From contig JAGAJQ010000054.1 of NCBI GenBank assembly GCA_017828955.1, forward strand, positions 1 to 38,570: DNA of 38,570 nt. The letters run 5' to 3'. This stretch comes from Oscillospiraceae bacterium. Its GTDB lineage: Bacteria > Bacillota > Clostridia > Oscillospirales > Ruminococcaceae. Of the stretch, positions 8,450-32,792 are shown one piece after another (within the stretch, counting starts at the first letter, position 1; every line of letters starts with the position of its first letter). The position numbers and the translations under genes were made by a program. Under the pieces are notes generated by a model. That model saw only the letters and a program-made list of their open reading frames with translations, had not been told where the DNA came from and made no database searches.

Positions 8450-8461
8450 TATAAAAACTCC

Positions 8462-11544: not shown

Positions 11545-11581
11545 AAAATACGCTCTCTTTTAAAAAGAGAGCGTATTTTTT
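11545..11581. terminator. Bidirectional rho-independent terminator
   Basis: 16-bp stem AAAATACGCTCTCTTT / AAAGAGAGCGTATTTT with a T-run, between convergent genes. Confidence 0.75.
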
Positions 11582-11608: not shown

Positions 11609-12937
11609 TCAATATTTCAATAAGTCTGAAGCTTCCGAAAATTCATCGGCAAGCCCTTCGTTCTTGATTGACATTCTTTCATACATGACTTCTTTTATAG
11701 AACCGTCAACTTCAATGAGAGTATTAAGAGTGTTGATATCCTCCATAGAAGCCGTTCCGCTGTTGTATTTATCGAGATAAGTGTCTATAACATTATCAAG
11801 AGTAGGTCGGAATGCCTGATTGTAATATACTATCGAACTCCAGTTATCCATATTTTTATCGAAGCCAGTTATTTTTCTGATAGTGTCTATTCCGTCGGCG
11901 ACAGTTTTAAGAGCCTTTGTTCCGGGTGTCATATCAAATACGGCATCCATAACCTTATCTCCTGCCCATTCCTTTGCATCCTTCATAACCATATCTGCTG
12001 TTTCAAAGAACTGGTCTGAATATTTTCTTTTGAGTTCAGATATAACCTGTTCAACGACAACAGGATTTTCAACCTGAGAAAATGCACTTTCAAGAGAGTC
12101 GAGATATTTAAGATTTTCCGAATAGTCATTCAAAAGATATTCGACAAATTCTGCACCTCTTTTTCCGTATTTCATAAACTTTCCGAGGTCATCCAGACCT
12201 ATTCCTGTCAGTTTAGATAATTCTTTCATCTCGCTGTCAGAAAGTTTTCCGCTTAAAAACAATTCGCCTATGTCCATTCCGTGATCTATAATATCTTTTC
12301 CGTCGTAAACGCTGTCAACGAAATCCTTATATCCACCGCTCAATATCTCATGTTGTCTGTGCTCGCATTCTTTCTGGATTGCAGAATGGATAACTTCCTT
12401 GATATGACCCACTTGAATTTCGTTAACCATATCTTTGCCTGTAATTGTATCCCATATTGAAACAACCATATTTTTGGTTTCATCCCAGGCATCATTGACA
12501 GCGGAACCGATAATGCTATGAGCGTTATAGTTTTTCTCTTTCCACATATCATAATTTTTATCATATTCTTTTCTGTTATAGAGATATGCGTCATATTTTG
12601 ATAATGTAGAAAATTCTTTTTCCGTTGCTTGTTCAAACATAGTGTTTATTGATTTTTTAACATTATATTCTGTTTCCGCAGTTTCGCCAATGCAAGCTCC
12701 GAGAATATCTCTGAGTTCAATTAATTCTTCTTTACATTTGACGAATTTATAAAGCTGTTCTAAAACCTCATCGTAGAAATGTCGTAAATTTTTATCCTGC
12801 ATCATATCACTGTGACATTCGAAGTTTGTGATAAGATTGACAGCAGTTGTTTTATGAGTTTCCTCAAGGTTTGATACGGATAAAGATAACTTATCTACCA
12901 TTGTGGACATAACTGTTGTATTCATTTTGTAAAGCAT
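11609..12937 (-). CDS. Hypothetical 442-aa soluble helical protein, last gene of the WXG operon (candidate T7SS substrate)
   Basis: RBS GGGGGA 6 nt upstream. No TM helix or signal peptide. Sits directly after two WXG100-size genes. LXG-like identity could not be established by eye. Confidence 0.6.
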   Translation of the reverse strand: MLYKMNTTVMSTMVDKLSLSVSNLEETHKTTAVNLITNFECHSDMMQDKNLRHFYDEVLEQLYKFVKCKEELIELRDILGACIGETAETEYNVKKSINTMFEQATEKEFSTLSKYDAYLYNRKEYDKNYDMWKEKNYNAHSIIGSAVNDAWDETKNMVVSIWDTITGKDMVNEIQVGHIKEVIHSAIQKECEHRQHEILSGGYKDFVDSVYDGKDIIDHGMDIGELFLSGKLSDSEMKELSKLTGIGLDDLGKFMKYGKRGAEFVEYLLNDYSENLKYLDSLESAFSQVENPVVVEQVISELKRKYSDQFFETADMVMKDAKEWAGDKVMDAVFDMTPGTKALKTVADGIDTIRKITGFDKNMDNWSSIVYYNQAFRPTLDNVIDTYLDKYNSGTASMEDINTLNTLIEVDGSIKEVMYERMSIKNEGLADEFSEASDLLKY

Positions 12938-12964
12938 ATTTTTTCCCCCTTTACATTATGATTG

Positions 12965-12984
12965 AAAAGGTCGGCTGACCTTTT
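12965..12984 (-). terminator. Intra-operon hairpin (possible attenuator after the WXG100 genes)
   Basis: AAAAGGTC / GACCTTTT stem with a 4-nt loop between the 107-aa gene and the 442-aa gene. Weak U-tract on the minus strand. Confidence 0.3.
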
Positions 12985-13010
12985 TCAGATAAACCGACCT
13001 CTATAAAAAA

Positions 13011-13334
13011 TCAGTTGTTGAACATTTTTGTTGTAGGAAGTCTGTCTACAGTACTTGTTGAATTGCTGTCTCCTTCTCTGTATAACTCTGCTGATGTTCT
13101 TAAATCCTGTATATGATTTGAAATATTATCGAGAGAAGCTGTGATTTCTCTTGTAACATTCTGATATTTGTCAACATAGTTTGTTCCTGACCGGCTCTTC
13201 CAGAAATCAGCGAGAGCGGTTACCTTTGATTTCATATCGCTCATAATAGCTTCCATTTCGTTCTTTTCTTTTTCAATCTGCGATGCTTTATTGTTTATTT
13301 CTTCAGTAGAAACTTTAATTACTAAATTACTCAT
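13011..13334 (-). CDS. WXG100-like small helical protein (107 aa)
   Basis: WXG100 size, a central FWKSRSG motif between two predicted helices, and adjacency to the esxA-like gene. C-terminal tail TTKMFNN. Confidence 0.65.
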   Translation of the reverse strand: MSNLVIKVSTEEINNKASQIEKEKNEMEAIMSDMKSKVTALADFWKSRSGTNYVDKYQNVTREITASLDNISNHIQDLRTSAELYREGDSNSTSTVDRLPTTKMFNN

Positions 13335-13368: not shown

Positions 13369-13662
13369 TTATCGGTTTGAATGAGTCTTTGCGTTCTTTA
13401 ATTCAGCTTCTTCATAAATCTGAACAGCTTTTAAAATCGCATCTTTGTATTCAATCATAAAGTTTGCAAGGCTGTTGTATTTGGGTTTGTCAGATGCAAA
13501 TGTTTTGTTGAAAGCTTCGTTTGCATTGCCGTCCCACATAGCGTCGAGCTCTGAGGCATACTGATAAAGTCTGTTTACAGAATTCTGCCAATCGCTGATT
13601 TTAGTATCGATTTCTTTTGCGATCTGTCTCATTTCCATTGGTCTGATTTCAAATTGTGCCAT
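13369..13662 (-). CDS. esxA: WXG100 family protein (EsxA-like, 97 aa)
   Basis: Canonical length and a central W-x-G motif (MWDGNA) in a helix-turn-helix layout. Strong RBS AAGGAG. Confidence 0.85.
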   Translation of the reverse strand: MAQFEIRPMEMRQIAKEIDTKISDWQNSVNRLYQYASELDAMWDGNANEAFNKTFASDKPKYNSLANFMIEYKDAILKAVQIYEEAELKNAKTHSNR

Positions 13663-13683: not shown

Positions 13684-14646
13684 TTAATTATTTCCTATTA
13701 TAACCGCACCGTTCATATGCATATATCCATAATGCTGAAGGAATTCTTCAACCTGCATACCATGAACGGGAGCGTTGTCAACTGCTGCCATAGCGGACTC
13801 TAAAGAAAGGTCGTTTGCATAAAGTTTTGTTTCAAACCCTGCGCCCCAGGAATTATCATAGAATGTGATTTCGCCATCTTTATGTATTCCGTCTATAAAC
13901 ATTACGTGCCCATATTCTCCCGAGTCGAAAGAAACAACTATGTTTCGCAGTGGCTCTGTCTGATCCGACGCCATATATTCATTGATCATCTGTCTGAATC
14001 CGTCAACGCCCGTATATCTGTTTTCGGGTGCACCCGCGTAGTTATCAAACCATTGTCCTCCGCTTGTGTTTCCTACTGTTGCGAAGGGATAACCAAGCCC
14101 CTTTTTATGAAGACGGTACATAGTCGAGAATGTGCAGGACACCCAGCCTGATTCATCGTTGAATGGTGCAACAGCAGGATCGCCGCCTGAGGGGTCGTCC
14201 TGATAATAATATCCGCCTGCACCCGAATATCCGGTTGCTCCCGCAAGGCCTTGTGACGAATAATCCTTTGCCTTGTATCTGTCGATAACAGCATTTGAAG
14301 TCGGCGATGAAGCAGATGGTATTTTGGGTAATTTTGAAGCAAATGCTCCGAAAAGTCTTGAAGCTGCTTTATCTGCTTCGGTCATATTTATGATATATTG
14401 GTTTACTCTTTTTGATATTTCCTCAAGAGAATCAGATATATCTTTCAGTTCGCGAACAAGTTGGTTTATTTGTCTGCAATATTCTGCTGATGCCTGTGAT
14501 CTCCAAAACTCCTCTATTCGATGCGAAACTATATTCATACGTTCCGTTTCAGCGTTAATCTCAGCAGCTACTGTTCGTATCTCTTCCGAGAACCGCTGAG
14601 CCTCCATAGTATCAATAATGGCTTCCATTTGTTCTGAAAAATTCAT
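13684..14646 (-). CDS. WXG-like N-terminal domain fused to a CHAP/NlpC-P60-like peptidoglycan hydrolase domain
   Basis: The N-terminal ~100 aa is a helical hairpin with FWRSQASAEY, followed by a Gly/Ser/Tyr linker. The C-terminal domain has a Cys (WVSCTFSTMY), a His (YGHVMFIDG) and Asp-Asn (ITFYDNSW), spaced like a CHAP catalytic triad. Confidence 0.65.
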   Translation of the reverse strand: MNFSEQMEAIIDTMEAQRFSEEIRTVAAEINAETERMNIVSHRIEEFWRSQASAEYCRQINQLVRELKDISDSLEEISKRVNQYIINMTEADKAASRLFGAFASKLPKIPSASSPTSNAVIDRYKAKDYSSQGLAGATGYSGAGGYYYQDDPSGGDPAVAPFNDESGWVSCTFSTMYRLHKKGLGYPFATVGNTSGGQWFDNYAGAPENRYTGVDGFRQMINEYMASDQTEPLRNIVVSFDSGEYGHVMFIDGIHKDGEITFYDNSWGAGFETKLYANDLSLESAMAAVDNAPVHGMQVEEFLQHYGYMHMNGAVIIGNN

Positions 14647-14664
14647 TAAAATGTTCCACCTCCT

Positions 14665-15009
14665 TTAATTGCCAAACATTTTTTTGGTTGAAAAAACACT
14701 TTTCGGGATTATACCTTCTATTCCCTCAAAAATATTTGAATCGGCCGTTTCGTAGTCTATTCTTGACTGGATTATAAACTCTTTTTCTTTGTTCAGGTTA
14801 TTTTCAAGATTTAAAATCTTGTCTGATGTTTTGGCCGATTTTGAGTAATATTCTGCTTTGGCATCTGTGCCCCAATGACTTTCGTAATATTCTTTCAGAT
14901 TGTCATATTCTGATTCTAATTCTCCGATTTTTTCGGAAATTTCACCGAGCTTGTTTGCAACCTCTGTCATTACCTGAGGGTCAGAAATTATGTATTTCAG
15001 CATTTCCAT
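14665..15009 (-). CDS. WXG100-like small helical protein (114 aa)
   Basis: Central HWGTDAKAEY motif and helical heptad character. C-terminal tail TKKMFGN. RBS GAGGTG. Confidence 0.6.
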   Translation of the reverse strand: MEMLKYIISDPQVMTEVANKLGEISEKIGELESEYDNLKEYYESHWGTDAKAEYYSKSAKTSDKILNLENNLNKEKEFIIQSRIDYETADSNIFEGIEGIIPKSVFSTKKMFGN

Positions 15010-15025
15010 TTTCTATCATCACCTC

Positions 15026-15415
15026 TTATCTGGAGCCACCGCCGCCACCGCCGAAGCTTCCTTCTCCGCCGCCGCTGAAACTTATCTGCGATGAATAAGC
15101 AACTCTGTTTCTTACTTTTGCGAGAACTTGTTTCTCGCATTCTTCGTATCTTGATATAGCTTTGTTGAGAATGTCTATTTCACTTTCTATACGACAAATA
15201 ATCGATTCGAATTTACATTTGGTTTGTTCTAATCTGTAAATCTGAAGTTCTCCTGCCATACCCTGCCATACCGAAGAGAGAAGATTTTTCTGATTGACAA
15301 ATTCATCGCGCAGTTCAACAACTTCTTGATGCTTTTTATCTAAGGCTGATTTCATATCTTTGAGTTGTTCAACATCCCAATAGATTTCATCGGAAAATAA
15401 TAAAGGGTTATACAT
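15026..15415 (-). CDS. WXG100-like protein with Gly-rich C-terminal tail
   Basis: WQGMAG motif and a C-terminus GGGEGSFGGGGGGSR. The listed ATG at 15421 sits only 2 nt from the GGAG of the RBS, so the second in-frame ATG at 15415 is preferred. Confidence 0.6.
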   Translation of the reverse strand: MYNPLLFSDEIYWDVEQLKDMKSALDKKHQEVVELRDEFVNQKNLLSSVWQGMAGELQIYRLEQTKCKFESIICRIESEIDILNKAISRYEECEKQVLAKVRNRVAYSSQISFSGGGEGSFGGGGGGSR

Positions 15416-15458
15416 TGTCATCGCTCCTTTCTGTTCGTTTTCTATATTCTACATCAAA

Positions 15459-15487
15459 AAAATATGCTTGTGTTGATTTTCTGACAA
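15459..15487 (-). promoter_or_regulatory. Putative promoter of the WXG operon
   Basis: On the minus strand: TTGTCA, 17-nt spacer, TATTTT, about 35 nt upstream of the start codon. Confidence 0.3.
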
Positions 15488-15520
15488 ACAACCGATTTGA
15501 TGGGATAAAAGGTATCGCGA

Positions 15521-15574
15521 TGCATTTCAGGGCAGAAATCCTGCATTTCGTCAGGTTTTCAACAAATGCATTTT
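15521..15574. promoter_or_regulatory. Three phased direct repeats TGCATTTY (candidate LytTR-type activator site)
   Basis: TGCATTTC at 15521 and 15543, and TGCATTTT at 15567 (22- and 24-bp spacing). They lie in the divergent promoter region. An extended -10, TGATATGAT (15581-15589), follows on the plus strand. Confidence 0.3.
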
Positions 15575-15630
15575 AAAATGTGATATGATTGTGCTGTAAG
15601 ATACCTATTTATGTTAAAGGGGACATTTTT

Positions 15631-16542
15631 ATGCAGAAAAAATCAAAAATAATTATCATTTCGATAGTTTCGGCTATCCTTTTGATCGTCGGAGTTTTTA
15701 CCGCCATAGCGCTTACGGGCGCAGGGAATAATACAGAAAAAGTAACAACGGAAAAACTCTCTCTCGGACAGAAATTTCTTTTAGACCTCGAATATGACAA
15801 GGCTGTTGCGGAATTTCAGGCAGTTATTGATATCGAGCCTAAGAATGTTGACGCTTACATAGGCCTTGCGGATGCCTATATCGGAATGGGCGAAGAAGAA
15901 AAAGCCATTGAAACCCTCGAAAAAGGTCTTTCAGAGACAGGCGATGAAACTATCAGGGCGAAACTCGATGAGATGAAAAAGCCTGAGGAGACAACAGTGG
16001 AGGTTACTACAACACCCGAGGAGACGACAGCCAAAAAATCAGTCTGGCCGAGGAGGGAAGATCATAGCGATGGTTCTTATTCCATACTCGACCCCGATTC
16101 AAATGGAAATTTGATAATAAGTGATTACGAAGCTGACGGAACACTTTATCGTTATTCGATACACGAATACGATTACGATTCAAATGAGGAAAAAGTAAGT
16201 CGCTATAACCCCGATGGAACACTTAATAGTTATTCGATACACGAATACGATTCAAATGGGAATGAGATAAAAATGAGTTTTTACAACGGCGACGGAACAC
16301 TTGATGAGTATTGGATATCCGAATATGATTCAAATGGAAATAGGATAAAAGAAAGTTGGTACAACCCCGACGGAACACTTGATTATTACTCTATACACGA
16401 ATACGATTCAAATGGGAATGAGATAAAATCAAGTGATTACAACCCCGACGGAACACTTTTTTGTTATTCGATATCCGAATACGATTCAAATGGAAACAGG
16501 ATAAAAACAAGTCATTACTACCCCGACGGCACACCGATTTAA
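15631..16542 (+). CDS. Paralogue A: TM anchor + TPR module + Thr/Pro/Glu linker + YD-like repeats
   Basis: Start moved to MQKKSK (RBS AAAGGGGA), shared by all paralogues. TM helix IIIISIVSAILLIVGVFTAIALTG and TPR-like module KLSLGQKFLLDLEYDKAVAEFQAVIDIEPKNVDAYIGLADAYIGMGEEEKAIETLEKG. Five 26-aa repeats of the form EYDSNGNxIKxSxYNPDGTL. Confidence 0.85.
   Translation: MQKKSKIIIISIVSAILLIVGVFTAIALTGAGNNTEKVTTEKLSLGQKFLLDLEYDKAVAEFQAVIDIEPKNVDAYIGLADAYIGMGEEEKAIETLEKGLSETGDETIRAKLDEMKKPEETTVEVTTTPEETTAKKSVWPRREDHSDGSYSILDPDSNGNLIISDYEADGTLYRYSIHEYDYDSNEEKVSRYNPDGTLNSYSIHEYDSNGNEIKMSFYNGDGTLDEYWISEYDSNGNRIKESWYNPDGTLDYYSIHEYDSNGNEIKSSDYNPDGTLFCYSISEYDSNGNRIKTSHYYPDGTPI
16165..16539 (+). repeat. 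Intragenic tandem 78-bp (26-aa) repeats, about 5 units
   Basis: GAATA(C/T)GAT unit starts at 16165, 16243, 16321, 16399 and 16477, an exact 78-nt period. Confidence 0.85.
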
Positions 16543-16724: not shown

Positions 16725-16844
16725 TGTAACCAAATTGTAATAACTTTATGATAAACTGTAATCAATTTGTAATCGCATTGAAGTATAATGTATGGTATAA
16801 TCTGTAAAGGAGAAAAATTTTATTTTTTGGGGGAAGAAGAAAAA

Positions 16845-18184: not shown

Positions 18185-18973
18185 ATGAAGAAATTCATGA
18201 CAGTATCCATAATTTTCGCAATGCTTCTGTCTTTAACGGCTTGTGAAAAAACGGAAGAAAAGCACAACGCAGAAACAACAACTGCTATAACAACAGAAGA
18301 AGTTGCTACAACGGCTGAAACAACTGCTGTGACAACGGAAGAAGTTACAACAACTTCCGAAGAAACTATAACAGTAGCGGAAGAAACAACGGTTGCAACG
18401 GCAGAAACAAACGTTGCGGTAACAACCGCAGCGACCACTGCCGAAAAGAAAGGCCCTAAAACAGAAAGAACCGATGATGAAAAAAACGGCGTATACTACA
18501 TAAAGGAATATGACGATAAGGGCCGTGAAATTGCGGCTTACGGATACCGTATGAAAGACGATTCGCTTATTGCTTACTATACAAAAAAGTATGACAGCAA
18601 TAATGGTTACGAGATGAAAGTCTATGACGGGAATAAGAAACTCACAGGGCATGAATTCCGTGATGCAAAAGACAACCTTGTGAGAGTAAATGTTTTTTCT
18701 ACAAACGGATATGTTCTTTATAAAAGAAACGATAACGGAAGACTTATAAAAGAAGAACATTATAATGAAAACGGAGGTCTTGTCAGTTACTGGACATATA
18801 CTCCCGATGAAAACAGCAAGACAGTAAAGGCGGAGTATTATGATGTTGCGGGAGCGTTTACATATTACTATTCGGGAACGATAAACGAAAGAGGACAGTA
18901 TATACTCAACAAAAAACACTCCGCTGACGGAACAATTATACAGGAACTGGCGCCCGGAGAACAATTTACTTAA
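18185..18973 (+). CDS. Lipoprotein: Thr/Glu-rich linker + YD-like repeats
   Basis: Lipobox LLSLTAC and a TTEEV-type linker. The junction KGPKTERTD is shared with paralogues B and D. Repeats such as KEYDDKGRE and KKYDSNNGY. Confidence 0.8.
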   Translation: MKKFMTVSIIFAMLLSLTACEKTEEKHNAETTTAITTEEVATTAETTAVTTEEVTTTSEETITVAEETTVATAETNVAVTTAATTAEKKGPKTERTDDEKNGVYYIKEYDDKGREIAAYGYRMKDDSLIAYYTKKYDSNNGYEMKVYDGNKKLTGHEFRDAKDNLVRVNVFSTNGYVLYKRNDNGRLIKEEHYNENGGLVSYWTYTPDENSKTVKAEYYDVAGAFTYYYSGTINERGQYILNKKHSADGTIIQELAPGEQFT

Positions 18974-21460: not shown

Positions 21461-22126
21461 ATGAAAACAAAAATCTTATGTTACATAATCGACGGAATAA
21501 TACTCATATCGCTTATTGCGGTATGGGTTTATGTTCTTTTAACAGAAATGCCCATGAAATCAATAATCGCGATAGCGCTTATCTCGCTTGTCCTCATAAT
21601 ACTCGGCGGAGTTGTTCTTTTTGTGGCGATGAGAAGTGAAAGCGGAGAAAAGTCTGTTAAAAAACAGGTTGAAGAAAAAGAAGAAGTTCCCGTTATCGAA
21701 AAGCCTGAACCTGTTACTAAAAACAACGACGATCCGGAAACTGATATTATGCTAAAAGAACCGACAACAGAGATCATACTTGACAAAGGGTCTGACAAAA
21801 CAGAAATCATTCCTCAGAAGAGAAGTTTTTATGTAAAACTTCAGGATAAGAACAACTCTGTAAAGACATATCAGACATATTTTGACACAGAGGCTATCAT
21901 CGGAAGACATGAAGGAAACTGCAATATTGTCCTTGCGGATGAAAAGAGCGTTTCAAGACGCCATTGCAGACTTTTTGTCGATAAGGACAGAATTATGGCG
22001 GAGGACTTAGGGTCTTCAAACAGAACTTATGTAAACGGAATTCAGGTTGAGGGACGTGCACTTGAAATAAAAAGCGGAGATGAACTCAGAATGGGCAGAG
22101 CGATATTTATTGTCACAATAAATTAA
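21461..22126 (+). CDS. Membrane-anchored FHA-domain protein
   Basis: Two N-terminal TM helices and an acidic linker containing TTEII and KTEII. The C-terminal FHA domain has canonical phosphothreonine-binding residues (IIGRHE, SVSRRH, SSNRTYVNG). Confidence 0.85.
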   Translation: MKTKILCYIIDGIILISLIAVWVYVLLTEMPMKSIIAIALISLVLIILGGVVLFVAMRSESGEKSVKKQVEEKEEVPVIEKPEPVTKNNDDPETDIMLKEPTTEIILDKGSDKTEIIPQKRSFYVKLQDKNNSVKTYQTYFDTEAIIGRHEGNCNIVLADEKSVSRRHCRLFVDKDRIMAEDLGSSNRTYVNGIQVEGRALEIKSGDELRMGRAIFIVTIN

Positions 22127-22139: not shown

Positions 22140-23624
22140 ATGAAATACTGTGAATATACAAATACAGGAATAATCCGAAGCGTCAATCAGGACAGCCTTC
22201 TTTCGCTCTCGATGAACGGCTCGGGGCTTTTTGTCGTTGCCGACGGAATGGGCGGACATATAGACGGAGAGATTGCCAGCAAGGCTGTTAAAAAGGCCTG
22301 TCAGAAATGGTGGAACACATCTTTTATGGAAAATTCAGATATGGATTTTCTTCTGGCGGTTGAAGAAATCAAGGCAGCGATTGAAATTGTCAACAAAAAT
22401 CTCATAAAGAAAATGGAAGGTACGGGAAAAATCTGCGGAACAACCGTTGCCGTTGTTTTCATTCATAACGGTGCTTATGCCGCTATGAATATAGGCGACA
22501 GCAGAATATATCTTTCGAATAAAAGAGGTGTGCGTAAAATTTCATTTGACCACACCTTGAATTCGTTTGAGGAGATAAAAAACACCGCTCTTTCTGAAAA
22601 GGATAAACTTACTCAGGCGATAGGTGTTAAAGAAGATCTCAGCTGGTACACGGCGACAGATACACTCAAAAACGACGAAAAATTCTTTATCTGCACAGAC
22701 GGTGTTTATAAATACACAGAAGAGGAAGACCTTTTTTCTGCAATAAAGAATTACTCAGAAGAGGAAGAGATAAAGAAGGAAATCGAAAAGCAGGTTATCT
22801 TAGGCGGTGCGCCTGATAACTTTTCTTTTATTGCAATAGATATGAGAAAAGAAAAAGCCTCGGTTTCAAGAAAGCCTCTTATCATCGTTTCGGCGATAGC
22901 GGTTGCACTTTTCGTTATATTCACAGTGATTTTTGCGGTTGCCGTTTCGGGAGATAAAGGAGAAAATATACAGACTGTTATGTCTGAAAAACTCTCCCTC
23001 GGTCAGAAATTTCTTTTAGACCTCGAATACGACAAGGCTGTTGCAGAATTCACAGCCGTTATTGATATCGAGCCTAAGAATGTCGACGCTTATATGGGGC
23101 TTGCTTCTGCTTATATCGGTATGGGTGAAAAGGATAAGGCTATTGAAACTCTCGAAAAGGGTCTTATGGAAACGGACGACGAAACTATCAGGGCAAAACT
23201 TATGGAACTCAAAACCCCCGAAGAAACAACAGCAGAGGTGACTACTACCCCCGAAGAAACAACCCCCGAGACTACAACAACCCCTGAGGAGACGACAACT
23301 GTTCCTGAAACGACAATGGTTGTAACTACACAAAAAGCAGCAACAATAAAAAAATTCGAATATGAAGATGAGGATATTATAAGTGAATTTGATTCAAATG
23401 GAAGAATAATAAAAAGAAGTATCTATAAGAAAGACGGAACACTTTTAGAATACGAAATATATGGATACGATTCATACGGGAATATGTCAGAAGGATATTT
23501 TTATAAAGCAGACGGAACACTTCTTCGTTATTTCAGAGAAAAATACGATGAGAACGGAAGGATTGTAGATGCGACTATTAAAGTTTTAGAAGGAACAGCA
23601 TCTCCAATGGGAATTGTGCAATAA
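22140..23624 (+). CDS. PP2C (PPM) Ser/Thr phosphatase fused via a TM helix to the paralogue TPR + linker + YD-like ectodomain
   Basis: PPM motifs NQDS, VVADGMGGH, GDSRIY and TDGV. TM helix LIIVSAIAVALFVIFTVIFAVAV. This is followed by KLSLGQKFLLDLEYDKAVAEFTAVIDIEPKNVDAYMGL, a TTTPEETT linker and FDSNGRIIKRSIY repeats. Confidence 0.85.
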   Translation: MKYCEYTNTGIIRSVNQDSLLSLSMNGSGLFVVADGMGGHIDGEIASKAVKKACQKWWNTSFMENSDMDFLLAVEEIKAAIEIVNKNLIKKMEGTGKICGTTVAVVFIHNGAYAAMNIGDSRIYLSNKRGVRKISFDHTLNSFEEIKNTALSEKDKLTQAIGVKEDLSWYTATDTLKNDEKFFICTDGVYKYTEEEDLFSAIKNYSEEEEIKKEIEKQVILGGAPDNFSFIAIDMRKEKASVSRKPLIIVSAIAVALFVIFTVIFAVAVSGDKGENIQTVMSEKLSLGQKFLLDLEYDKAVAEFTAVIDIEPKNVDAYMGLASAYIGMGEKDKAIETLEKGLMETDDETIRAKLMELKTPEETTAEVTTTPEETTPETTTTPEETTTVPETTMVVTTQKAATIKKFEYEDEDIISEFDSNGRIIKRSIYKKDGTLLEYEIYGYDSYGNMSEGYFYKADGTLLRYFREKYDENGRIVDATIKVLEGTASPMGIVQ

Positions 23625-23681: not shown

Positions 23682-25898
23682 ATGTTTAAGCAAGGCGAAT
23701 TACTCAACGGAACATACAAGATAATCGAAAATATAGGCTCGGGCGGTGGCGGAGAAATCTATAAAGCCTATCATACACACCTCGATTGTTATGTTGCCGT
23801 TAAACTTATAAAGGATAACATCAAGGGAAAACTTGATGACAGGGCAGAAGCCGATATCCTCAAAAAAATAAAACATTCATATCTTCCTCAGGTTTATGAC
23901 TTTGTCATCACTGACGAGGGGGATGTCTATACGGTTATGGAATTCGTTGAGGGGATGTCTTTTTCAGAGCATCTCAAAAACGGAAAGACATTCACAAACG
24001 CACAGGTTATAAAATACGCAAAGCAGGCTTGTGAGGCACTTTCATACCTGCATACAAGAAAACCCGCTATTGTCCACAGTGATATCAAACCTGCGAATAT
24101 TATGCTTACTCCCGATGACAATATCTGCATAATAGACTTCAACATCTCGTCTGTACTCAGTGAAGGAGGAGCGTTTGCTGTCGGCAAAAGCGACGGATAT
24201 TCTCCCCCTGAGCAGTATGTAAAGAAGAACAAGACGGAAAAAGCAAAGACAGATAAAACATCAACAATAACAGAAACAGAAATCTTAGGCGAAACAGAAT
24301 TTGACAGTTTTGAAGAAGATACTTCGATAACAGTTACAACCATAACAGAAATCGAGGAGACAGAAGCTGTTACAGACATAGTAGGAGAAGAGAAAGAAGA
24401 AACTGATATCACTCCCGAAAAGAGCAGTAGTTTTGCCTCAAAGATGATAGTTTCAAAAGCGATTATTGATGAACGTTCAGATGTTTATGCCCTTGGCGCA
24501 ACACTTTATCATCTCATCAGCGGAAAAAGACCTGAAAAGTCGACAGATGGTGTTACTCCCATAAACAAACTCGATACAGAGGCAAGCTACGGACTTCGCT
24601 GTATCATTTCAAAGGCTATGGAAAATTCTCCGAAAAAGAGATATGCAAACGCAGGGGAGATGCTTATTGCCCTTGAAAATATTCACAGTATGGAAAAGCT
24701 ATATAAAAGCTTTACTTTAAGAAACCGCATAATCTATGCCCTTTTGATTTTGGGAACAGCCTTTTTCTCTGTTCTTGCCTTTATGGGATATAAGAGAATC
24801 GGAACAGAAAATGCCATGGCATATAAGGAGTATACAGAAAAGCTCGTCGTTTTAAGAGAAAAGGGCGACGAAAAGGGCTTTGAAGAAATCTATCAGAAGG
24901 CAGAGGCTATCTATAACGACAGACTCGATATCCATTTTCAGAAAGCACTCTTTCTTTTTGAAAAGGGTGAATATGATAACTGTCTTTCATATATGGATGA
25001 AATAATGAGAAATCATCCCGAATACACGGACGATGCCGAAATGGCGGACCTTTTATTCGTTCATGCAAACTGTTATTTTGAAAAAGAGGATTATTCTTCG
25101 GCTATCATAAAATACAAATCCGCGATAGATAAAAAATCGGATAACGGAGAATATTACCGCGACTATGCAATTTCTCTCGCGAGAACGGGCGAGCCGGACA
25201 AGGCTTCGGAAGTTCTGAAAAGGGCGACAGAACTCGGTCTTTCGGAAGAAAATATATGCCTCGTTGACGGCGAAATAGATTTTGTAAGAGGAAGATATGA
25301 AGAGGCTGAAAAATCGCTTTTGAAATGTATATCCGTTTCATCTGATGAATACATAAAACAGCGTGCGTATATTCTTATAAACAAGGTTTATTCAAAAACG
25401 GGCGAAACCGCAAAGAATACGGAAATTCTCGAAAAGGCTTTAAAGGAACTTCCCGAAGAAAGACTTTACAGCATATATGAGCTTCTTTCACAATGCTATC
25501 TTGATATGGGAAAAGAAACGGGTGAAAACGACTATTATCTCAAAGCCGTTGATATTTTTTCGGTTATGCAGAAAAAGGGTTTCGGCGGATACAGAGTTTC
25601 TGAAAATAAGGCTGTCGCTTATTATACAATAGGCGATTGCGAGTCGGCAAAGGCGGAACTGAATAAGATGAAAGAGGATTTCGGAGAAAATTATAGAACA
25701 GATATGTATCTCGCTTTCTGCGAACTTCGTGAAGAGTCTGAAAAAAGCAATAACAAGAGAGACTATTCGGATTTTCTCAAATATTACAATAACGCGAAAA
25801 GCCTTTATGAAAAAGAGGCAGAGGATGGTATGACCGATATGGAAATGCAGGTTCTCACGGACACATATCATCAGCTAAAAGAGGGCAACTGGTTTTAA
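23682..25898 (+). CDS. Membrane Hanks-type Ser/Thr protein kinase with C-terminal TPR-like domain
   Basis: G-loop GSGGGGEIYKA, VAVK lysine, catalytic loop HSDIKPANIML (non-RD), DFN and SPPE. A ~70-aa Thr/Glu-rich insert precedes SDVYALG. One TM helix (IIYALLILGTAFFSVLAFMGY), then ~370 aa of helical TPR-like repeats. Confidence 0.9.
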   Translation: MFKQGELLNGTYKIIENIGSGGGGEIYKAYHTHLDCYVAVKLIKDNIKGKLDDRAEADILKKIKHSYLPQVYDFVITDEGDVYTVMEFVEGMSFSEHLKNGKTFTNAQVIKYAKQACEALSYLHTRKPAIVHSDIKPANIMLTPDDNICIIDFNISSVLSEGGAFAVGKSDGYSPPEQYVKKNKTEKAKTDKTSTITETEILGETEFDSFEEDTSITVTTITEIEETEAVTDIVGEEKEETDITPEKSSSFASKMIVSKAIIDERSDVYALGATLYHLISGKRPEKSTDGVTPINKLDTEASYGLRCIISKAMENSPKKRYANAGEMLIALENIHSMEKLYKSFTLRNRIIYALLILGTAFFSVLAFMGYKRIGTENAMAYKEYTEKLVVLREKGDEKGFEEIYQKAEAIYNDRLDIHFQKALFLFEKGEYDNCLSYMDEIMRNHPEYTDDAEMADLLFVHANCYFEKEDYSSAIIKYKSAIDKKSDNGEYYRDYAISLARTGEPDKASEVLKRATELGLSEENICLVDGEIDFVRGRYEEAEKSLLKCISVSSDEYIKQRAYILINKVYSKTGETAKNTEILEKALKELPEERLYSIYELLSQCYLDMGKETGENDYYLKAVDIFSVMQKKGFGGYRVSENKAVAYYTIGDCESAKAELNKMKEDFGENYRTDMYLAFCELREESEKSNNKRDYSDFLKYYNNAKSLYEKEAEDGMTDMEMQVLTDTYHQLKEGNWF

Positions 25899-26066: not shown

Positions 26067-26069
26067 ACT

Positions 26070-27202: not shown

Positions 27203-30200
27203 ATGGCATATATATTTTATTTCAACTTCAAAGAAAATGTTTATGAATACCCGTTGCCTGCTGTCAACAACAGGGTCATAAGCATTGATATATCTGAATT
27301 CTCATCGGAAAAAGGCGTTATAAATCTTGAAATCTTTGACGGCGTATGGAAACTCCTCCCCTCAGAAGATTTCAACTTCTCAGTGAACAACTCAATAATA
27401 ACAGAGAAGAAAATCGAAGACGGCGACAAAATCACAGCGAAGAAAAAACGCGGGGAACTCACCTTTATGATTTTTGCGCTCAAAGCCTCTGAAAACACAA
27501 GCGTATACAGAAAATGGTCGCTCGAAGGGGTAAACAGGGTTACTGTCGGTATGGATGAAAACTGCGATATCGTTTATAAAGAACAGTTTGTCAGCCATAA
27601 ACACGCAACTATCGAAAGAAAAGGCTCGGGCTTTTTCCTTACAGACAATTCAACAAACGGAACATTTTTAAATGGCTCGAAAATATCGGGCGAAACCCCT
27701 CTTTCTATCTTTGACACAATATACATACTGGGTCTTAAAATAATCTTTTTAGGCGAATATATAGCAACAAACAAGATTTTGGAACTCGGCGTTTCGCTTA
27801 CTGAAATATGCGATATAAACAATGATTATGAGCCTTATGAGGATGAATCCGACTTTTCTCGTTCACCGAGAAGAATAGAGCCTCTCGATGAAGAAGTAAT
27901 TGAGATAGAATCCCCTCCCTCACAGCATAAGGCTTCGAGTCAGCCTCTTATTTTCATAATAGGCCCTTCGGTAACAATGCCACTGCCGATTATGATTTCT
28001 GTCATCATAAATATGATGTCATCGGGCAACACATCAAATCCGCTTATGTATTTAGGAACGGTAATTTCCGTTGTATGTTCGGGATTCATAGGCGCGGGTT
28101 GGGCACTCGCACATCAGTTTTATAACAAGAAGACAGTTAAAAAACAGGAAGAAGCAAGAGTAAAGGCATATGGCGAATATATTGCCAAAAACGAAAATCT
28201 TCTCTCTGAAAAACAGGATAAGAACAAGCGTATTATAGATGAACAGTTTTTATCCTCAGATAAACTTATGAAAAAGGTTTTCAAGGATAAGACTTTTTTA
28301 TGGAACAGAAATATAAACCACGCCGATTTCTCGAAAATCCGTTTCGGAACAGGCTCTGTAAAACTTCCTAACGGAATATCTGTTCCCAAGGAAAGATTTT
28401 CTATGAATGACGACACCCTTGCCGACAAGCCGAGAGAGCTTTTCGACCGTTACAACACAATGGAAGACTGCGCATATACCGCAAGACTCAACGACAGCAA
28501 GATATGGGGCGTTATCGGTGAATATAAGAATGTTATGAATATCGTCAATAACATCGCCGTTCAGCTTTCGGCGCTCCATAGTTATAGCGATATCAAGATA
28601 GCGATTCTCTGTAAAGAAAACGAAAAGGAAAAATATCTCTGGATGAAGTGGCTTCCTCATATATTCTCATCCGACAGAAAAGTAAGAATGTTCGGATGCG
28701 ACAGCAACTCTGTAAAGAATGTATGCAATTTCCTCGGCGGAGAACTCCGTTCAAGAGAGGAGAATGCAGAGGGTGCATTATCAAGGGATTTAAGATTTCT
28801 CCCTCATTATTTCGTTATCTGCACAGACAAGTCCATCCTTGAAAAGAACAGTCTTTCAAAATACATAATGAATAATTCCGAGCTCGGTTTTACATTCATT
28901 CTTGCATACGAAAAGATGGACAAACTCCCCAATGAATGTAAGGTCATCATACAGCATGACGAAACATACAGCGGAATATATTCGCTTTCATCAACTATCG
29001 ACGAAACAAACTCTGTAAATTTCGATAACGTTGATGTAAAATACGCAGAAAAATATGCAAGAGCAATAAGCGGACTTTATCTTACAGAATTCACACAGGG
29101 CGAAATCCCCGCTTCTATCGATTATCTCGATATGCTCGGCATAGGAAAATTCGAACAATGGAACCTTATCAGAAAATACAAGGAAAACCGTTCTTATGAA
29201 AGTCTTGCTTCGTTTATAGGAATAGGAACAGGTAACCGCCCCGTTGTTCTTGATATCAGCGAAAAGATGCATGGTCCTCATGGTCTTATTGCGGGAACAA
29301 CAGGCTCGGGTAAGAGTGAAACAATACAGACATTTATTCTTTCGCTTATTTTAAATTACAGCCCCGATGAAGTTGCGTTTATCCTTATTGACTATAAGGG
29401 TGGAGGAATGGCAGCCGCTTTTGAAGGAATACCTCACCTTGCGGGAATTATCACAAACCTCGGCGGAGATACAGGCGAGGGTGAGATTGACGAAAACCTT
29501 ACAAGACGTGCACTTATCTCGATAAAGAGTGAAATAAAGAGAAGACAGCAGATTTTCAACCGCTATAAAGTAAACCATATAAACCAGTATATAAAGATGT
29601 ACAGAGGCGGTGCTGTCAGCGAAGCATTACCCCATTTGATTATTATATCGGACGAATTTGCAGAACTTAAACACAAACAGCCTGAATTCATCAAAGAACT
29701 TGTCAGCGTTGCCAGAGTAGGAAGAAGCCTCGGCGTTCATCTTATACTTGCAACACAGAAACCTTCGGGGGTTGTCGATGAAGAAATCTGGAGTAACTCA
29801 CGTTTCAAAATCTGTCTTAAAGTTCAGGACAAGCAGGACAGTATAGGAATGCTCAAACGCCCCGAGGCAGCATATCTTGTCAATACGGGACGCGCTTATA
29901 TGCAGATAGGAAACGATGAGATTTTTGATATGTTCCAGTCGGGATATTCGGGTGCTGAATATATGCCGACAGATGAATTTGTTTCTTCAAAGGATAAGGA
30001 AGTCATTATGATTGATATCGACGGAACATATCTTGAAGAAAACACAATGACAGGAAAAGGAAATCAGACAGGTATCTCACAGCTTAAAGCGGGTATTGAT
30101 TATGTAATAAATGTTTCGGCAATGAGTGGTTTCAAACCGACAAGAAAACTTTGGAATGAATGTCTGCCTTCGCTTATCGGTCTTGATAAACTTGATGTTT

Positions 30201-31798
30201 CGGGCATTGATTTTAAAAGCGGGCTCATCTCCTGCTATGGTATCATTGATAACCCTGAAAAACAGTCACAGTATCCTGCTGTCGTTGATGTTTCAAAGAC
30301 ATCTCATATACTTGTTTCAGGTATGTCAGGCTCAGGAAAATCAACATTCTTACAGACAATGGTATATTCTCTTGTTTCAAGATATACTCCCGATGAAATA
30401 CAGTTCTACTTCATAGATTTTTCAAGCAGAACAACAAGAAAATTTGAAAAGCTTCCTCATTGCGGAGGAGTTGTTTTCCAGGAACACAACGAACTCATAG
30501 AAAGACTTTTCAGACTTCTTGAAAACGAATGTGATGAAAGAAGAAGAATTTTCGATAAGGCAGATGCGGGAAGTTTCGGTGAATATACAAAGAAGAATAA
30601 AATGCCTATGATACTTGTTGTAATCGACAATTATGCAGGTTTTTCAGAAGGGTATCCCGAACTTGCAGAAAAACTCGCAGGGTTTTCAAGAGACTGCCTT
30701 AAATACGGCATCCAGCTTGTTATTTCAGCGAATAATACAAACGATGTGAAATACAAGACAATGCAGAATATCGGATATAAAATCGCACTCCGCCTTTCAG
30801 ACCGTTATGGATATAACGAAATACTCGGTGGTGCGCCCGAATTCACACCTTCAAAATATGCAGGCCGTGGTCTTGTAAAAGAAGACGGTATTTTAGAATT
30901 CCAGACAGCTGTTCCGTTTGAAATCGAAGATGAAACAGAACGTTCTGAAAAGATGATAAAGGAATTTTCAGATATCGCAAAGAAATACAAGAAACACACT
31001 CCCGCAAAGAGAATTCCGTCTATCCCCAGGGATGAAATATATGCTGATTTCTATGAAAAGAATAAGGCGGATGGTATGATTCCTTTAGGATACGATACAA
31101 ACGATATCTCACCTCTTTCTCTTTCGAGACGTGATACATTCTGTCTTGCTGTCGGTGCTTCTGAAGAAAAGAGTATATCGCTTATGTTCAGTAACTTCAC
31201 TTACTGTGCGAAACAGTCGGGCGCTGTTGTATGGTATTTTAAAACATCGACAGATATGCTCTGTAAACCTGAATATGTCGACAGGGTTTATACAAAGACA
31301 AAAATCGAAGATTTTCTTAAAGCCTTGCAGAAAGAGTTTGAAACTGCATCTGAAATAAGAGGGAAATATAAGGATTCTATGAGTGTAAACGAGATGGAAA
31401 CAAAGGTTGTCGAAGAAAAGAAGATGCTCTATATCTTTATTGATAATATGGCAGAATTTTGTAAGATAATATATAATCCCAAAAATGAATATCCGCTTAA
31501 TAATATTGTTGAGGAGACATTCAGATATGGCGAAAAGAGAGGGGTAACCTTTATAGTTGGCTTCGGAACTGATAGCTATATCGACGCTATACACAGCACA
31601 GCCTGCAGGAATTTCCTCTTTAATAAGACAATTCTTCATATCGGCGGACATCTTGATCAGCAGAAACTTTATTCTTCATCATTGCCTTATAATATCCAGA
31701 ACAGACCTCTTGATTTACAGACAGGCTATTTCTTCAACGGAACAACCGAAAGACAGATATTCATACCATTGTCCGAACGAGGTGAAAACGATGCTTGA
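27203..31798 (+). CDS. essC: T7SS FtsK/SpoIIIE-family ATPase EssC (N-terminal FHA region, 2 TM helices, 3 ATPase domains)
   Basis: FHA-like segment VTVGMDENCDIVYKEQFVSHKHATIE...STNGTFLNG and two TM helices. D1 has GTTGSGKSE and IIISDEFAEL. D2 has GMSGSGKST and VVIDNYA. D3 has the degenerate P-loop GASEEKS. The 1531-aa length is typical of EssC/YukB. Confidence 0.9.
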   Translation: MAYIFYFNFKENVYEYPLPAVNNRVISIDISEFSSEKGVINLEIFDGVWKLLPSEDFNFSVNNSIITEKKIEDGDKITAKKKRGELTFMIFALKASENTSVYRKWSLEGVNRVTVGMDENCDIVYKEQFVSHKHATIERKGSGFFLTDNSTNGTFLNGSKISGETPLSIFDTIYILGLKIIFLGEYIATNKILELGVSLTEICDINNDYEPYEDESDFSRSPRRIEPLDEEVIEIESPPSQHKASSQPLIFIIGPSVTMPLPIMISVIINMMSSGNTSNPLMYLGTVISVVCSGFIGAGWALAHQFYNKKTVKKQEEARVKAYGEYIAKNENLLSEKQDKNKRIIDEQFLSSDKLMKKVFKDKTFLWNRNINHADFSKIRFGTGSVKLPNGISVPKERFSMNDDTLADKPRELFDRYNTMEDCAYTARLNDSKIWGVIGEYKNVMNIVNNIAVQLSALHSYSDIKIAILCKENEKEKYLWMKWLPHIFSSDRKVRMFGCDSNSVKNVCNFLGGELRSREENAEGALSRDLRFLPHYFVICTDKSILEKNSLSKYIMNNSELGFTFILAYEKMDKLPNECKVIIQHDETYSGIYSLSSTIDETNSVNFDNVDVKYAEKYARAISGLYLTEFTQGEIPASIDYLDMLGIGKFEQWNLIRKYKENRSYESLASFIGIGTGNRPVVLDISEKMHGPHGLIAGTTGSGKSETIQTFILSLILNYSPDEVAFILIDYKGGGMAAAFEGIPHLAGIITNLGGDTGEGEIDENLTRRALISIKSEIKRRQQIFNRYKVNHINQYIKMYRGGAVSEALPHLIIISDEFAELKHKQPEFIKELVSVARVGRSLGVHLILATQKPSGVVDEEIWSNSRFKICLKVQDKQDSIGMLKRPEAAYLVNTGRAYMQIGNDEIFDMFQSGYSGAEYMPTDEFVSSKDKEVIMIDIDGTYLEENTMTGKGNQTGISQLKAGIDYVINVSAMSGFKPTRKLWNECLPSLIGLDKLDVSGIDFKSGLISCYGIIDNPEKQSQYPAVVDVSKTSHILVSGMSGSGKSTFLQTMVYSLVSRYTPDEIQFYFIDFSSRTTRKFEKLPHCGGVVFQEHNELIERLFRLLENECDERRRIFDKADAGSFGEYTKKNKMPMILVVIDNYAGFSEGYPELAEKLAGFSRDCLKYGIQLVISANNTNDVKYKTMQNIGYKIALRLSDRYGYNEILGGAPEFTPSKYAGRGLVKEDGILEFQTAVPFEIEDETERSEKMIKEFSDIAKKYKKHTPAKRIPSIPRDEIYADFYEKNKADGMIPLGYDTNDISPLSLSRRDTFCLAVGASEEKSISLMFSNFTYCAKQSGAVVWYFKTSTDMLCKPEYVDRVYTKTKIEDFLKALQKEFETASEIRGKYKDSMSVNEMETKVVEEKKMLYIFIDNMAEFCKIIYNPKNEYPLNNIVEETFRYGEKRGVTFIVGFGTDSYIDAIHSTACRNFLFNKTILHIGGHLDQQKLYSSSLPYNIQNRPLDLQTGYFFNGTTERQIFIPLSERGENDA

Positions 31799-32534: not shown

Positions 32535-32792
32535 ATGACAAAGATACTTGTTGAAATAAATTGCCCCTCAACTGCAAGAAACTATGAATTCTGGATTTCA
32601 AAGCAGATGATTGTAAAGGACGTTATAAAAATCTGCAAAGAAGAAATCTGTATGACAGAGGGCAATAAGAAGATTTTCAACGATAACGAAAATATGGTGC
32701 TTTTTTCACAGAGGCTCCGTATTCCGCTTAATGAAAACTATACCGCAACCGAAGCGGGAATCATAAGCGGAGATAAACTTATGATTGTTTAA
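32535..32792 (+). CDS. esaB: YukD/EsaB-like ubiquitin-fold T7SS protein (85 aa)
   Basis: Size, a beta-grasp-like pattern (KILVEINCP, YEFWISKQMIVKDV, ISGDKLMIV at the C-terminus) and position beside essC. RBS AGGAGG. Confidence 0.65.
   Translation: MTKILVEINCPSTARNYEFWISKQMIVKDVIKICKEEICMTEGNKKIFNDNENMVLFSQRLRIPLNENYTATEAGIISGDKLMIV

Follow-up and report, generated by a model that had tools for sequence, protein, structure and literature searches.

A hairpin-linked CHAP-like enzyme encoded with two WXG100-like partners: a candidate wall-opening substrate of a type VII secretion system in gut Clostridia

Introduction

How the substrates of a type VII secretion system (T7SS) pass through the cell wall was still an open question in 2026 (PMC13492133). 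A 38,570-nucleotide contig of an Oscillospiraceae bacterium (JAGAJQ010000054.1; this whole stretch is hereafter the window) raises that question in a specific form. A cassette on its minus strand encodes two small WXG100-like proteins, which we call smallA and smallB, followed by a 320-residue protein that joins a WXG100-type helical hairpin to a divergent CHAP-like domain, and a kinase/phosphatase-type T7SS cluster lies on the plus strand (window 20285-33652). What would such an enzyme do for, or by way of, the secretion system? The original prediction, made from the sequence of the window, offered two answers: a secreted wall-degrading effector or a wall-remodeling enzyme that serves the apparatus. 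Domain and fold evidence, T7SS synteny in 13 of 14 loci and the co-variation of the two small genes with the hairpin sustain the ground common to both, and the choice between them leans toward service to the apparatus. We consider it very probable that the T7SS exports the CHAP-like enzyme of the cassette and that two co-evolving partners of WXG100 type target it; this core is common to the main competing readings.

Results

Gene order and domain layout

Three closely packed open reading frames (ORFs) run along the minus strand from 15421 to 13684 in the order smallA, smallB, 320-residue gene. This is the order the original prediction had given (129/131, 114 and 320 residues), and the ORFs bear it out. 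The same order is kept in four related loci, which argues that the arrangement is not due to chance. A six-gene operon (15421 to 11609, minus strand) has the triad as its 5' half, and its remaining genes encode a WXG100 protein of 97 residues, a WXG100 protein of 107 residues and a strain-variable protein of 442 residues, referred to here as slot 6. Gaps within the triad are 16 and 18 nucleotides, and a ribosome-binding site precedes each of its genes; these sites, the short gaps and a terminator at the end together indicate a single operon. For smallA, a second ATG at 15415 would yield 129 residues and is better spaced from AGGAG than the 131-residue start.

15026..15421, minus strand: smallA, 131 residues (129 from 15415), WXG100-like hairpin with the motif W-Q-G, C-terminus rich in Gly; proposed partner 1
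14665..15009, minus strand: smallB, 114 residues, WXG100-like, tail STKKMFGN at 14668-14691; proposed signal-bearing partner 2
13684..14646, minus strand: gene for the 320-residue hairpin::CHAP-like protein (ORF and Pfam)
14353..14646, minus strand: N-terminal WXG100/EsxA-like hairpin, residues 1-98 (Pfam, TIGR03930, AlphaFold2, Foldseek)
14161..14352, minus strand: disordered low-complexity linker, residues 99-162 (predicted local distance difference test, pLDDT, 30-50)
13687..14160, minus strand: divergent CHAP-like papain-fold domain, residues 163-320 (Pfam, AlphaFold2, Foldseek, invariant residues)
14360..15421, minus strand: hypervariable block of smallA, smallB and hairpin (nucleotide identity compared with the flanks)

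An EsxA-like hairpin in place of a signal peptide

The N-terminus of the 320-residue protein matches WXG100 (PF06013) over residues 18-92 with 26.6 bits, just below the 27.3 cut-off, and scores 30.3 bits against TIGR03930, below its cut-off of 44.85. The curated WXG100 cut-off is missed by the hairpin, smallA and smallB alike and is passed by the 97- and 107-residue proteins of the operon. PF06013 is precomputed on six orthologs of the 320-residue protein, and a relative, P0017, scores above the threshold at 29.5 bits. AlphaFold2 (AF2) predicts hairpin helices at residues 3-47 and 51-98, connected by a turn, W48-R-S50, that reads WxS instead of WxG and in which W48 and S50 are invariant. By Foldseek, the hairpin model superposes on EsxA structures with a target template modeling (TM) score of 0.8-0.85 and a probability of 1.0. 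Neither a Sec signal peptide nor a transmembrane segment is apparent in the N-terminal sequence, and the LXG family (PF04740) gave no match to the protein at E<=1 in Pfam, the hairpin being of WXG100 size.

The two small proteins are WXG-like, as had been predicted. Pfam WXG100 matches both below threshold (smallA, 19.3 bits, E 1.4e-3; smallB, 23.0 bits, E 9.6e-5), TIGR03930 matches smallA with E 1.1e-4, and a local WXG100 profile finds them with E 2e-8 and 7e-10, respectively. The predicted turn is W-Q-G in smallA and H-W-G in smallB. Searches of Pfam and NCBIfam returned no match of either protein to DUF3130, TIGR04197 or DUF3958, and no FxxxD motif was seen in them by eye, no pattern search having been run. 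Membership of the Lap1/Lap2, LXG, DUF4176 or EspG-like chaperone families was considered and set aside, as the window holds no matches to them. Of the Lap1/Lap2-like triad originally proposed, what survives is two small helical partner genes that co-vary with the hairpin; family membership does not, and the resemblance is one of functional analogy.

Between hairpin and catalytic domain, the linker carries a conserved I-D-R-Y-K-A-K-D-Y-S, whose invariant form V-x-D-R-Y-K-A-K-x-Y-S spans residues 120-130 (window 14255-14293). Distant relatives have '[RK]Y.LP[DE]Y' or 'LP[DE]WAK' at this position. Conceivable roles for the motif are those of a propeptide, of an element that binds the wall or of a site for processing.

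A divergent CHAP-like catalytic domain

Pfam places CHAP (PF05257) on residues 165-263 with 30.3 bits, or 31.3 bits for the domain alone, against a gathering score of 26; most of the distant relatives score 17-24 bits, below that value. Among 32 family members, a CHAP match at E<=0.1 is present in 20 and a Peptidase_C39 match in one, and no other papain family recurs consistently. Three residues, Cys171, His247 and Asp264 (codons 14134-14136, 13906-13908 and 13855-13857), are invariant or at least 90% conserved in the 32 sequences, which share approximately 30% identity. Cys171 starts a helix (171-181), His247 lies on a strand (246-254), and Asp264, adjacent to the strand at 259-263, aligns with the catalytic Glu of the solved CHAP domain 2LRJ. 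The original prediction of a hairpin followed by a Cys/His/Asn papain fold thus holds for the hairpin, the CHAP-like domain, Cys171 and His247, but not for the Asn: judging from the alignment, Asp264 most likely takes the third catalytic place. Asn163 may contribute to the oxyanion hole.

The C-terminal half was poorly modeled in the full-length AF2 structure (pLDDT 64), and Foldseek matches to that structure were dominated by the hairpin. Re-modeled alone with a deeper alignment of 32 relatives, the domain reached a pLDDT of 82.6 and a predicted TM score of 0.83. The best Protein Data Bank (PDB) neighbors of this model are CHAP enzymes, namely an S. aureus amidase (5T1Q), LysGH15, LysK and PcsB (5T1Q, 4OLK, 4CSH, 4CGK), and its best viral neighbors in BFVD are phage N-acetylmuramoyl-L-alanine amidases and CHAP lysins. 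The CHAP assignment stands above the curated score in Pfam, and its Foldseek scores are weak (E 1e-3 to 0.1, TM score 0.3-0.4). Together, the profiles and the model indicate a divergent CHAP-like subfamily whose link to solved CHAP structures is barely visible to sequence profiles. We infer that its substrate is peptidoglycan.

A hypervariable targeting block upstream of a conserved enzyme

We compared the window with three related loci. Amino acid identity falls to 39-50% for smallA, 35-52% for smallB and 27-49% for the hairpin, while the enzyme (74-99% in its CHAP part) and the WXG100 pair encoded downstream (70-97%) are conserved. Nucleotide identity is 40-60% inside the block against 85-100% in the flanks, and the block is saturated, at approximately 50%. 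The borders are sharp: identity drops precisely at the first codon of smallA and is high again from the end of the second hairpin helix.

Hairpin and enzyme have separate histories. P0006 and P0010 share 96% identity in the hairpin and 77% in the CHAP domain, P0002 and P0008 share 97% and 81%, and P0005 and P0006 show the opposite, with 30% in the hairpin and 98% in the CHAP domain. This discordance argues that the block is exchanged by recombination. At least six hairpin allele classes occur among 11 orthologs, shuffled relative to the enzyme lineages. As smallA, smallB and the hairpin vary as one unit, the pattern is best explained, on sequence evidence, by the three forming a co-evolving physical complex.

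A C-terminal tail shared with a core WXG100 protein

Directly downstream of the triad lie the two WXG100 genes that pass the family cut-offs. By a local WXG100 profile, the window has five WXG100-like ORFs and no more, and every one belongs to this operon (E 5e-20 to 2e-8).

13369..13662, minus strand: core WXG100 protein, 97 residues, W-D-G, EsxA/TsxA1-like (Pfam WXG100 40.9 bits, TIGR03930 54.9 bits, both past the cut-off)
13011..13334, minus strand: core WXG100 protein, 107 residues, tail PTTKMFNN at 13014-13037, TsxA2-like, candidate signal-bearing member (Pfam WXG100 50.1 bits, TIGR03930 46.0 bits)

The 107-residue protein and smallB end in a common tail, S/T-T-K-x-M-F-x-N, and the final eight codons of smallB are kept although the block around them varies. 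Sharing of the tail is seen in five loci, listed here by locus:

Window: smallB, STKKMFGN; 107-residue WXG100, TTKMFNN
L001: smallB, STANMFRN; 107-residue WXG100, TTKMFNN
L003: smallB, STANMFKN; 107-residue WXG100, TTKMFNN
L004: smallB, STKNMFNN; 107-residue WXG100, TTKMFNN
L010 (EssC 44% identical): smallB, GLSADNIFV; 107-residue WXG100, GLSADNIFV

In L010, both tails have changed in parallel. None of the other ORFs among the window's 258 has the same ending. Esx pairs carry a C-terminal signal on one member, and Lap1 carries FxxxD; by analogy, we propose that the shared tail is a candidate system-specific export signal that docks on EssC. SmallB would then do for the hydrolase what the 107-residue protein does for the core pair.

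A rare family that travels with T7SS genes

A word-indexed search of 5.8 billion proteins returned 10 orthologs at 57-96% identity, and an exhaustive HMMER search of 1.84 billion representatives returned 139 matches, approximately 45 with the catalytic domain and the rest plain WXG100 proteins. The CHAP-like family is rare, amounting to approximately 55 clusters in these representatives. Named relatives come from metagenome-assembled genomes (MAGs) of Oscillospiraceae (sheep rectum) and Ruminococcus; a scan of genome contigs gave two MAGs only, and a scan of metagenome contigs for more loci gave two fragments of approximately 1.4 kb each. DNA matches derive from gut, bovine-gut and fecal metagenomes, one sediment sample and several unspecified metagenomes. 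Within the family, N-termini range from WXG100-type and other helical hairpins to a helical region with a hydrophobic segment, a weak LXG match (distant relative P0022, 19.3 bits, below 26.5) and a lipase. Approximately 9 of 58 members have a hydrophobic segment between hairpin and catalytic domain.

Gene context was read for 14 non-redundant loci, and WXG100 genes are immediately adjacent to the CHAP-like gene in 13. A full-length EssC is encoded within 10 kb of the CHAP-like gene in seven loci, and L016 shows the C-terminal part only, cut by the contig end; in the window, EssC lies approximately 12 kb from the cassette. Four loci share a fixed order: EssC, a 255-residue protein, YukD, WXG100, CHAP-like, WXG100, WXG100, PP2C. 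In the three of these contigs long enough to show it, a kinase gene follows PP2C. No immunity-like gene was seen after the CHAP-like genes in the loci read, where the next gene is in most cases a WXG100, PP2C or housekeeping gene.

The exception is P0033, in which a Sec signal peptide and a Ricin-B lectin take the place of the helical N-terminus and whose neighbors encode other secreted surface proteins; no other member of the family is without a helical N-terminus. This natural swap indicates an extracellular site of action for the catalytic domain and places the hairpin where an export signal is needed.

Two further loci have multiplied parts of the cluster. In L005 (8001-10528, an NCBI MAG contig), a single T7SS cluster contains two CHAP-like genes. 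One encodes P0018 (363 residues), which has a transmembrane segment and whose gene is followed by a DUF4176 chaperone-like gene; the product of the other has a WXG100 hairpin and is identical to P0017 (293 residues). L006 (380-11698) carries three copies of a six-gene module (a WXG100 protein of 99 residues, then proteins of about 210, 103, 130, 157 and 330 residues), and the second of these copies has the CHAP-like gene inserted into it, with YukD/PP2C/FHA genes lying downstream.

Slot 6 and the remainder of the operon

The sixth gene of the operon is polymorphic. Its 442-residue product matches no Pfam or NCBIfam family, has no solved relative and yielded only five homolog clusters. At all syntenic loci, the slot-6 protein begins with the helical 'M[LS]YKMN' type of N-terminus, and its C-terminus differs: the window and L004 have a ~340-residue orphan region there, L003 (11683-12618) has a second CHAP-like paralog (P0011), and L001 (11693-12241) has a truncated remnant that ends just past the catalytic-Cys motif. 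The variation is a classical polymorphic-effector pattern, the slot-6 protein is a probable second, polymorphic T7SS substrate, and the CHAP-like domain thus appears usable as swappable cargo.

15459..15487, minus strand: promoter-like site upstream of the operon (9/12 matches in a consensus scan, weak alone)
12950..12999, minus strand: stem-loop followed by UUUUC between the 107-residue WXG100 gene and the 442-residue gene (RNA fold -20.2 kcal/mol, z -3.57)
11609..12937, minus strand: slot-6 gene, 442 residues, 'MLYKMN...' helical N-terminus and ~340-residue orphan C-terminal region (no family in Pfam/NCBIfam)
11545..11579, minus strand: intrinsic terminator closing the operon, 16-bp stem and T-run (terminator scan)

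By sliding nucleotide identity, the window, L001 and L003 agree at 98-100% in the intergenic DNA around the promoter-like site (approximately 15469-15601). The stem-loop may be an attenuator or partial terminator that limits read-through to slot 6. Immediately past the end of the operon, at 6010-9133 on the minus strand, is a trio encoding a CotH kinase (583 residues), a DUF4956 protein (223 residues) and a VTC-domain protein (223 residues). The same trio follows the cassette in L003, and on this basis the two loci are syntenic.

The T7SS cluster of the window

The plus-strand cluster encodes the following T7SS and regulatory components:

21461..22126, plus strand: FHA protein (Pfam)
22140..23624, plus strand: PP2C phosphatase-TPR protein (Pfam)
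23682..25898, plus strand: Ser/Thr kinase with TPR C-terminus (Pfam)
27203..31798, plus strand: EssC/TsxC-type FtsK/SpoIIIE ATPase with N-terminal FHA (Pfam FtsK_SpoIIIE 204 bits, FHA 56 bits)
31557-32522, plus strand: ORF for a LytTR regulator, overlapping essC, true start probably later
32535..32792, plus strand: YukD/EsaB-like ubiquitin-fold component, 85 residues (tblastn, 39% identity, E 3.7e-15, to L010 ORF 8803-9060)

The EssC-type ATPase (27203..31798) is the presumed exporter of the 320-residue protein. It is 44% identical to the EssC of L010, where the small-gene/CHAP cassette directly follows essC. The 85-residue ORF of L010 (8803-9060) was judged YukD/ubiquitin-like by eye and has no Pfam match. 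Pfam scans of the larger ORFs detected no EsaA, EssA or EssB homologs in the window. The FHA, PP2C and kinase genes are of the regulatory and structural sort usual in kinase-type T7SS variants. The cluster resembles the T7SSe/T7SSj variants cataloged in 2024 by Garrett, Higginson and Palmer (PMC11217815) but sits in Oscillospiraceae; that catalog makes no mention of a CHAP or peptidoglycan hydrolase component (PMC11217815).

Eight paralogous surface proteins, with a transmembrane anchor or lipoprotein signal and DUF2963/YD-like repeats, are interleaved with the T7SS genes. Many also carry a TPR region with a nearly identical N-terminal stretch of approximately 115 residues.

5355-5822, minus strand: surface paralog
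15589-16542, plus strand: surface paralog
16788-18173, plus strand: surface paralog
18185-18973, plus strand: surface paralog
18995-19741, plus strand: surface paralog
20285-21442, plus strand: surface paralog
26070-27176, plus strand: surface paralog
32807-33652, plus strand: surface paralog

They are candidates for wall-spanning parts, adhesins or an immunity array. As immunity genes for the cassette, the divergent transmembrane-TPR-DUF2963 genes were considered and rejected: they stand beside the cassette in the window and in L001/L002 and are absent in L004 and in distant loci.

Discussion

A proposed mechanism

In the model we favor, the 320-residue protein would be a substrate of the window's T7SS. 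Its EsxA-like hairpin would assemble with smallA and smallB in the cytoplasm as a helical bundle, and the smallB tail (S-T-K-K-M-F-G-N), of the same kind as that of the 107-residue WXG100 protein, would dock the complex on the EssC ATPase. Once exported, the linker and the CHAP-like cysteine amidase/endopeptidase (Cys171-His247-Asp264) would lie beyond the membrane, and the enzyme would there cut peptidoglycan. The local opening made in the cell's own wall would let the T7SS and its substrates pass, a FlgJ-like logic in which the enzyme is exported by the machine it serves; action on neighboring cells may be a second use. The sequence analysis itself establishes which domains are present and their class of fold, the conservation of the catalytic residues, the synteny, the co-variation and the shared tail; the steps that we infer are assembly of the complex, export by way of EssC, cleavage of peptidoglycan and action in cis over action in trans.

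Own wall or neighbor's wall

That the main job of the enzyme is to open the producer's own wall for the T7SS, as with EssH, is the reading to which we give the most weight, with a rough probability of 0.45. It is favored by the fixed position of the gene beside the core WXG100 pair, its location in the core EssC/YukD/PP2C/kinase clusters of distant relatives and the absence of a visible immunity gene in the loci read. The strong conservation of the enzyme, the variants that could be membrane anchored, and the failure of Pfam scans of the larger ORFs to detect an EsaA-type wall-spanning component in the window also favor an apparatus role, as does core-cluster conservation that spans relatives only approximately 30% identical.

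Several observations weigh against it. With regard to the enzyme, its model resembles CHAP structures weakly (Foldseek E 1e-3 to 0.1, TM score 0.3-0.4), and papain-like toxins are also among the structural neighbors (CdiA-CT, 8SSK; 9L5U; Tse1). A search of PDB sequences with the whole 320-residue protein gave only a marginal CHAP match (2LRJ, E 0.14), and the 32-sequence family profile found no solved structure there; because these searches gave a marginal hit and then nothing, the fold assignment rests on Pfam and Foldseek. With regard to the locus, three related loci have no EssC within 10 kb, the operon of the window lies approximately 5 kb from the T7SS cluster on the opposite strand, and the one metatranscriptome consulted for transcription gave spurious 24-nucleotide matches only. 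Finally, a CHAP-like paralog in slot 6 of L003 and fusions of the domain to LXG-like, lipase and other N-termini are the behavior of a toxin warhead, and a housekeeping model leaves the hypervariability of the targeting module unexplained.

This last group of observations leads to the strongest competitor, an antibacterial bacteriolysin: the T7SS-exported CHAP-like hydrolase would lyse or weaken neighboring Gram-positive cells, the producer owing its protection to the chemistry of its wall or to a factor encoded elsewhere, and the variable helical module might set target specificity. The domain does serve as an exchangeable C-terminus in slot 6 (L003 compared with the window and L004), and it is found fused to LXG-like, Ricin-lectin and lipase modules. 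Precedents also exist. EatA with TapA1 and TapA2 is a two-partner T7SS envelope-hydrolase toxin, M. abscessus is predicted to have NlpC/P60 payloads (PMC13444075, 2026), TelC acts on a wall precursor, and allelic diversification is typical of conflict systems. However, EatA (EatI), TelC (TipC) and the predicted actinobacterial wall toxins all have an immunity gene, and no lipoprotein or membrane immunity gene was seen by the CHAP-like genes in the loci read. Moreover, constancy of the enzyme and variability of the trafficking part are the reverse of what polymorphic toxins show, and the gene keeps a fixed position inside core clusters across relatives of approximately 30% identity. We regard the bacteriolysin as unlikely, if less so than the readings that follow.

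A bolder reading, which we offer as speculation with the odds well against it, takes the cassette to be "inverse polymorphic", an unchanging wall-cutting enzyme joined to a recombining, hypervariable module of smallA, smallB and the hairpin. The CHAP-like family would at the same time supply the wall-crossing component so far missing from kinase-type T7SS variants, the enzyme leaving the cell through its own machine. Beyond its part in export, the secreted helical module may then set where, or in whose wall, the enzyme cuts, or may escape recognition by phage, host or competitors.

The enzyme might instead be a protease that processes T7 substrates or stabilizes the apparatus, like the mycosin MycP of T7SSa, or that acts as a proteolytic toxin. 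Foldseek neighbors do include papain-like protease toxins and the C39 peptidase domain of ComA (8SSK, 9L5U, 5XE9); a literature search on 8SSK (CdiA-CT) found nothing. The hydrophobic segment of approximately 9 of 58 members would yield a membrane-anchored, outward-facing peptidase like MycP, and conservation in core clusters suits a machine component. Against a protease stand the Pfam results, in which CHAP is the only consistent family (20/32, compared with 1/32 for Peptidase_C39), the top PDB and viral structural matches, which are peptidoglycan amidases and lysins, and the Sec-exported relative P0033, whose carbohydrate-binding Ricin-B lectin suits a glycan-wall substrate. We consider this reading improbable.

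That the protein is not exported at all, with the hairpin acting as a coiled-coil oligomerization or regulatory domain, the enzyme cytoplasmic or released by lysis and the WXG100 neighbors unrelated substrates, would fit the sub-threshold WXG100 score (26.6, just below 27.3) and the three related loci without essC within 10 kb, but it is very hard to reconcile with a hairpin that superposes on EsxA, relatives that exceed the WXG100 threshold, WXG100 genes beside the CHAP-like gene in 13 of 14 loci, the replacement of the hairpin by a Sec signal peptide in the single exception (P0033) and a tail shared with a core WXG100 protein.

Significance

T7SS-linked CHAP hydrolases (EssH) and targeting by helical partners (Lap, Esx, Tap) are known already. 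Their combination in one family within Clostridia kinase-type T7SS clusters, the inverse polymorphism and the shared tail are not described in the literature we searched. To our knowledge, EssH is the single characterized wall-crossing helper, and it is confined to staphylococci. The cassette points to another, putative solution in gut Clostridia, in which the peptidoglycan hydrolase is itself a T7 substrate. It is thus a candidate for how T7SS cargo passes the thick Gram-positive wall, or for how neighbors are attacked. Should the bacteriolysin reading be true, this would be the first T7SS peptidoglycan-hydrolase effector described in Bacillota that we found in the literature, and one without a linked immunity gene. 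The system offers experimental handles in the catalytic Cys, the short shared tail as a candidate export signal, and natural allelic sets for partner specificity.

Comparison with known systems

FlgJ is a flagellar rod cap fused to a muramidase, and type III and type IV secretion systems have dedicated lytic enzymes of their own. The 320-residue protein would share with FlgJ the principle of a wall-cutting enzyme carried on a substrate-like domain and exported by the machine for which it opens the way. The parallel is no more than an analogy, as the two have nothing in common in fold, secretion system or type of cell envelope.

Among enzymes delivered by secretion, Tse1 and the Tae proteins of the type VI secretion system are papain-fold peptidoglycan amidases, and Tse1 is a weak structural neighbor of our domain (probability 0.13). 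They differ in being delivered to the Gram-negative periplasm, in always being paired with periplasmic immunity proteins and in lacking a helical hairpin.

EatA-TapA1-TapA2-EatI of M. abscessus, an endo-D-arabinanase toxin secreted by ESX-4 in a species for which NlpC/P60 payloads are predicted too (PMC13444075), likewise combines a T7SS-exported envelope-polymer-degrading enzyme and a helical N-terminus with two upstream partner genes. It differs in belonging to an Actinomycetota T7SSa, in being a glycoside hydrolase, in having the secreted downstream lipoprotein inhibitor EatI and in its demonstrated killing. By contrast, our cassette has no visible inhibitor gene and is located within core clusters.

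In the TelC/TelD-Lap1-Lap2 system of S. intermedius and EsaD-EsxB/C/D of S. aureus, the gene for a large substrate with a helical N-terminus immediately follows those for two or three small helical proteins. These small proteins form a composite targeting signal, one of them bearing the export motif (FxxxD on Lap1). The cassette has the same layout, with the tail motif on smallB. However, its N-terminus is a WXG100-type hairpin of approximately 100 residues rather than an LXG domain of approximately 200, its partners fall outside DUF3130/TIGR04197/DUF3958, and its candidate signal is a different C-terminal tail. Nor is an immunity gene visible, the WXG100 pair coming next, and it is the enzyme that stays constant and the targeting module that varies.

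The closest functional parallel is EssH of S. aureus, a CHAP hydrolase required for T7SSb secretion that is exported by Sec and is not a T7 substrate (PMC13059805). Both proteins are CHAP-type Cys/His hydrolases tied genetically to a T7SS locus, although no sequence relationship was detected between them beyond the CHAP superfamily. EssH carries a Sec signal peptide where the 320-residue protein has a WXG100 hairpin and two partner genes, and the host system of the latter is a kinase/phosphatase-type T7SS variant. EssH is non-lytic, has no immunity partner and lets EsaA and substrates cross the wall (PMC13059805), and it is this role that we favor for the 320-residue protein.

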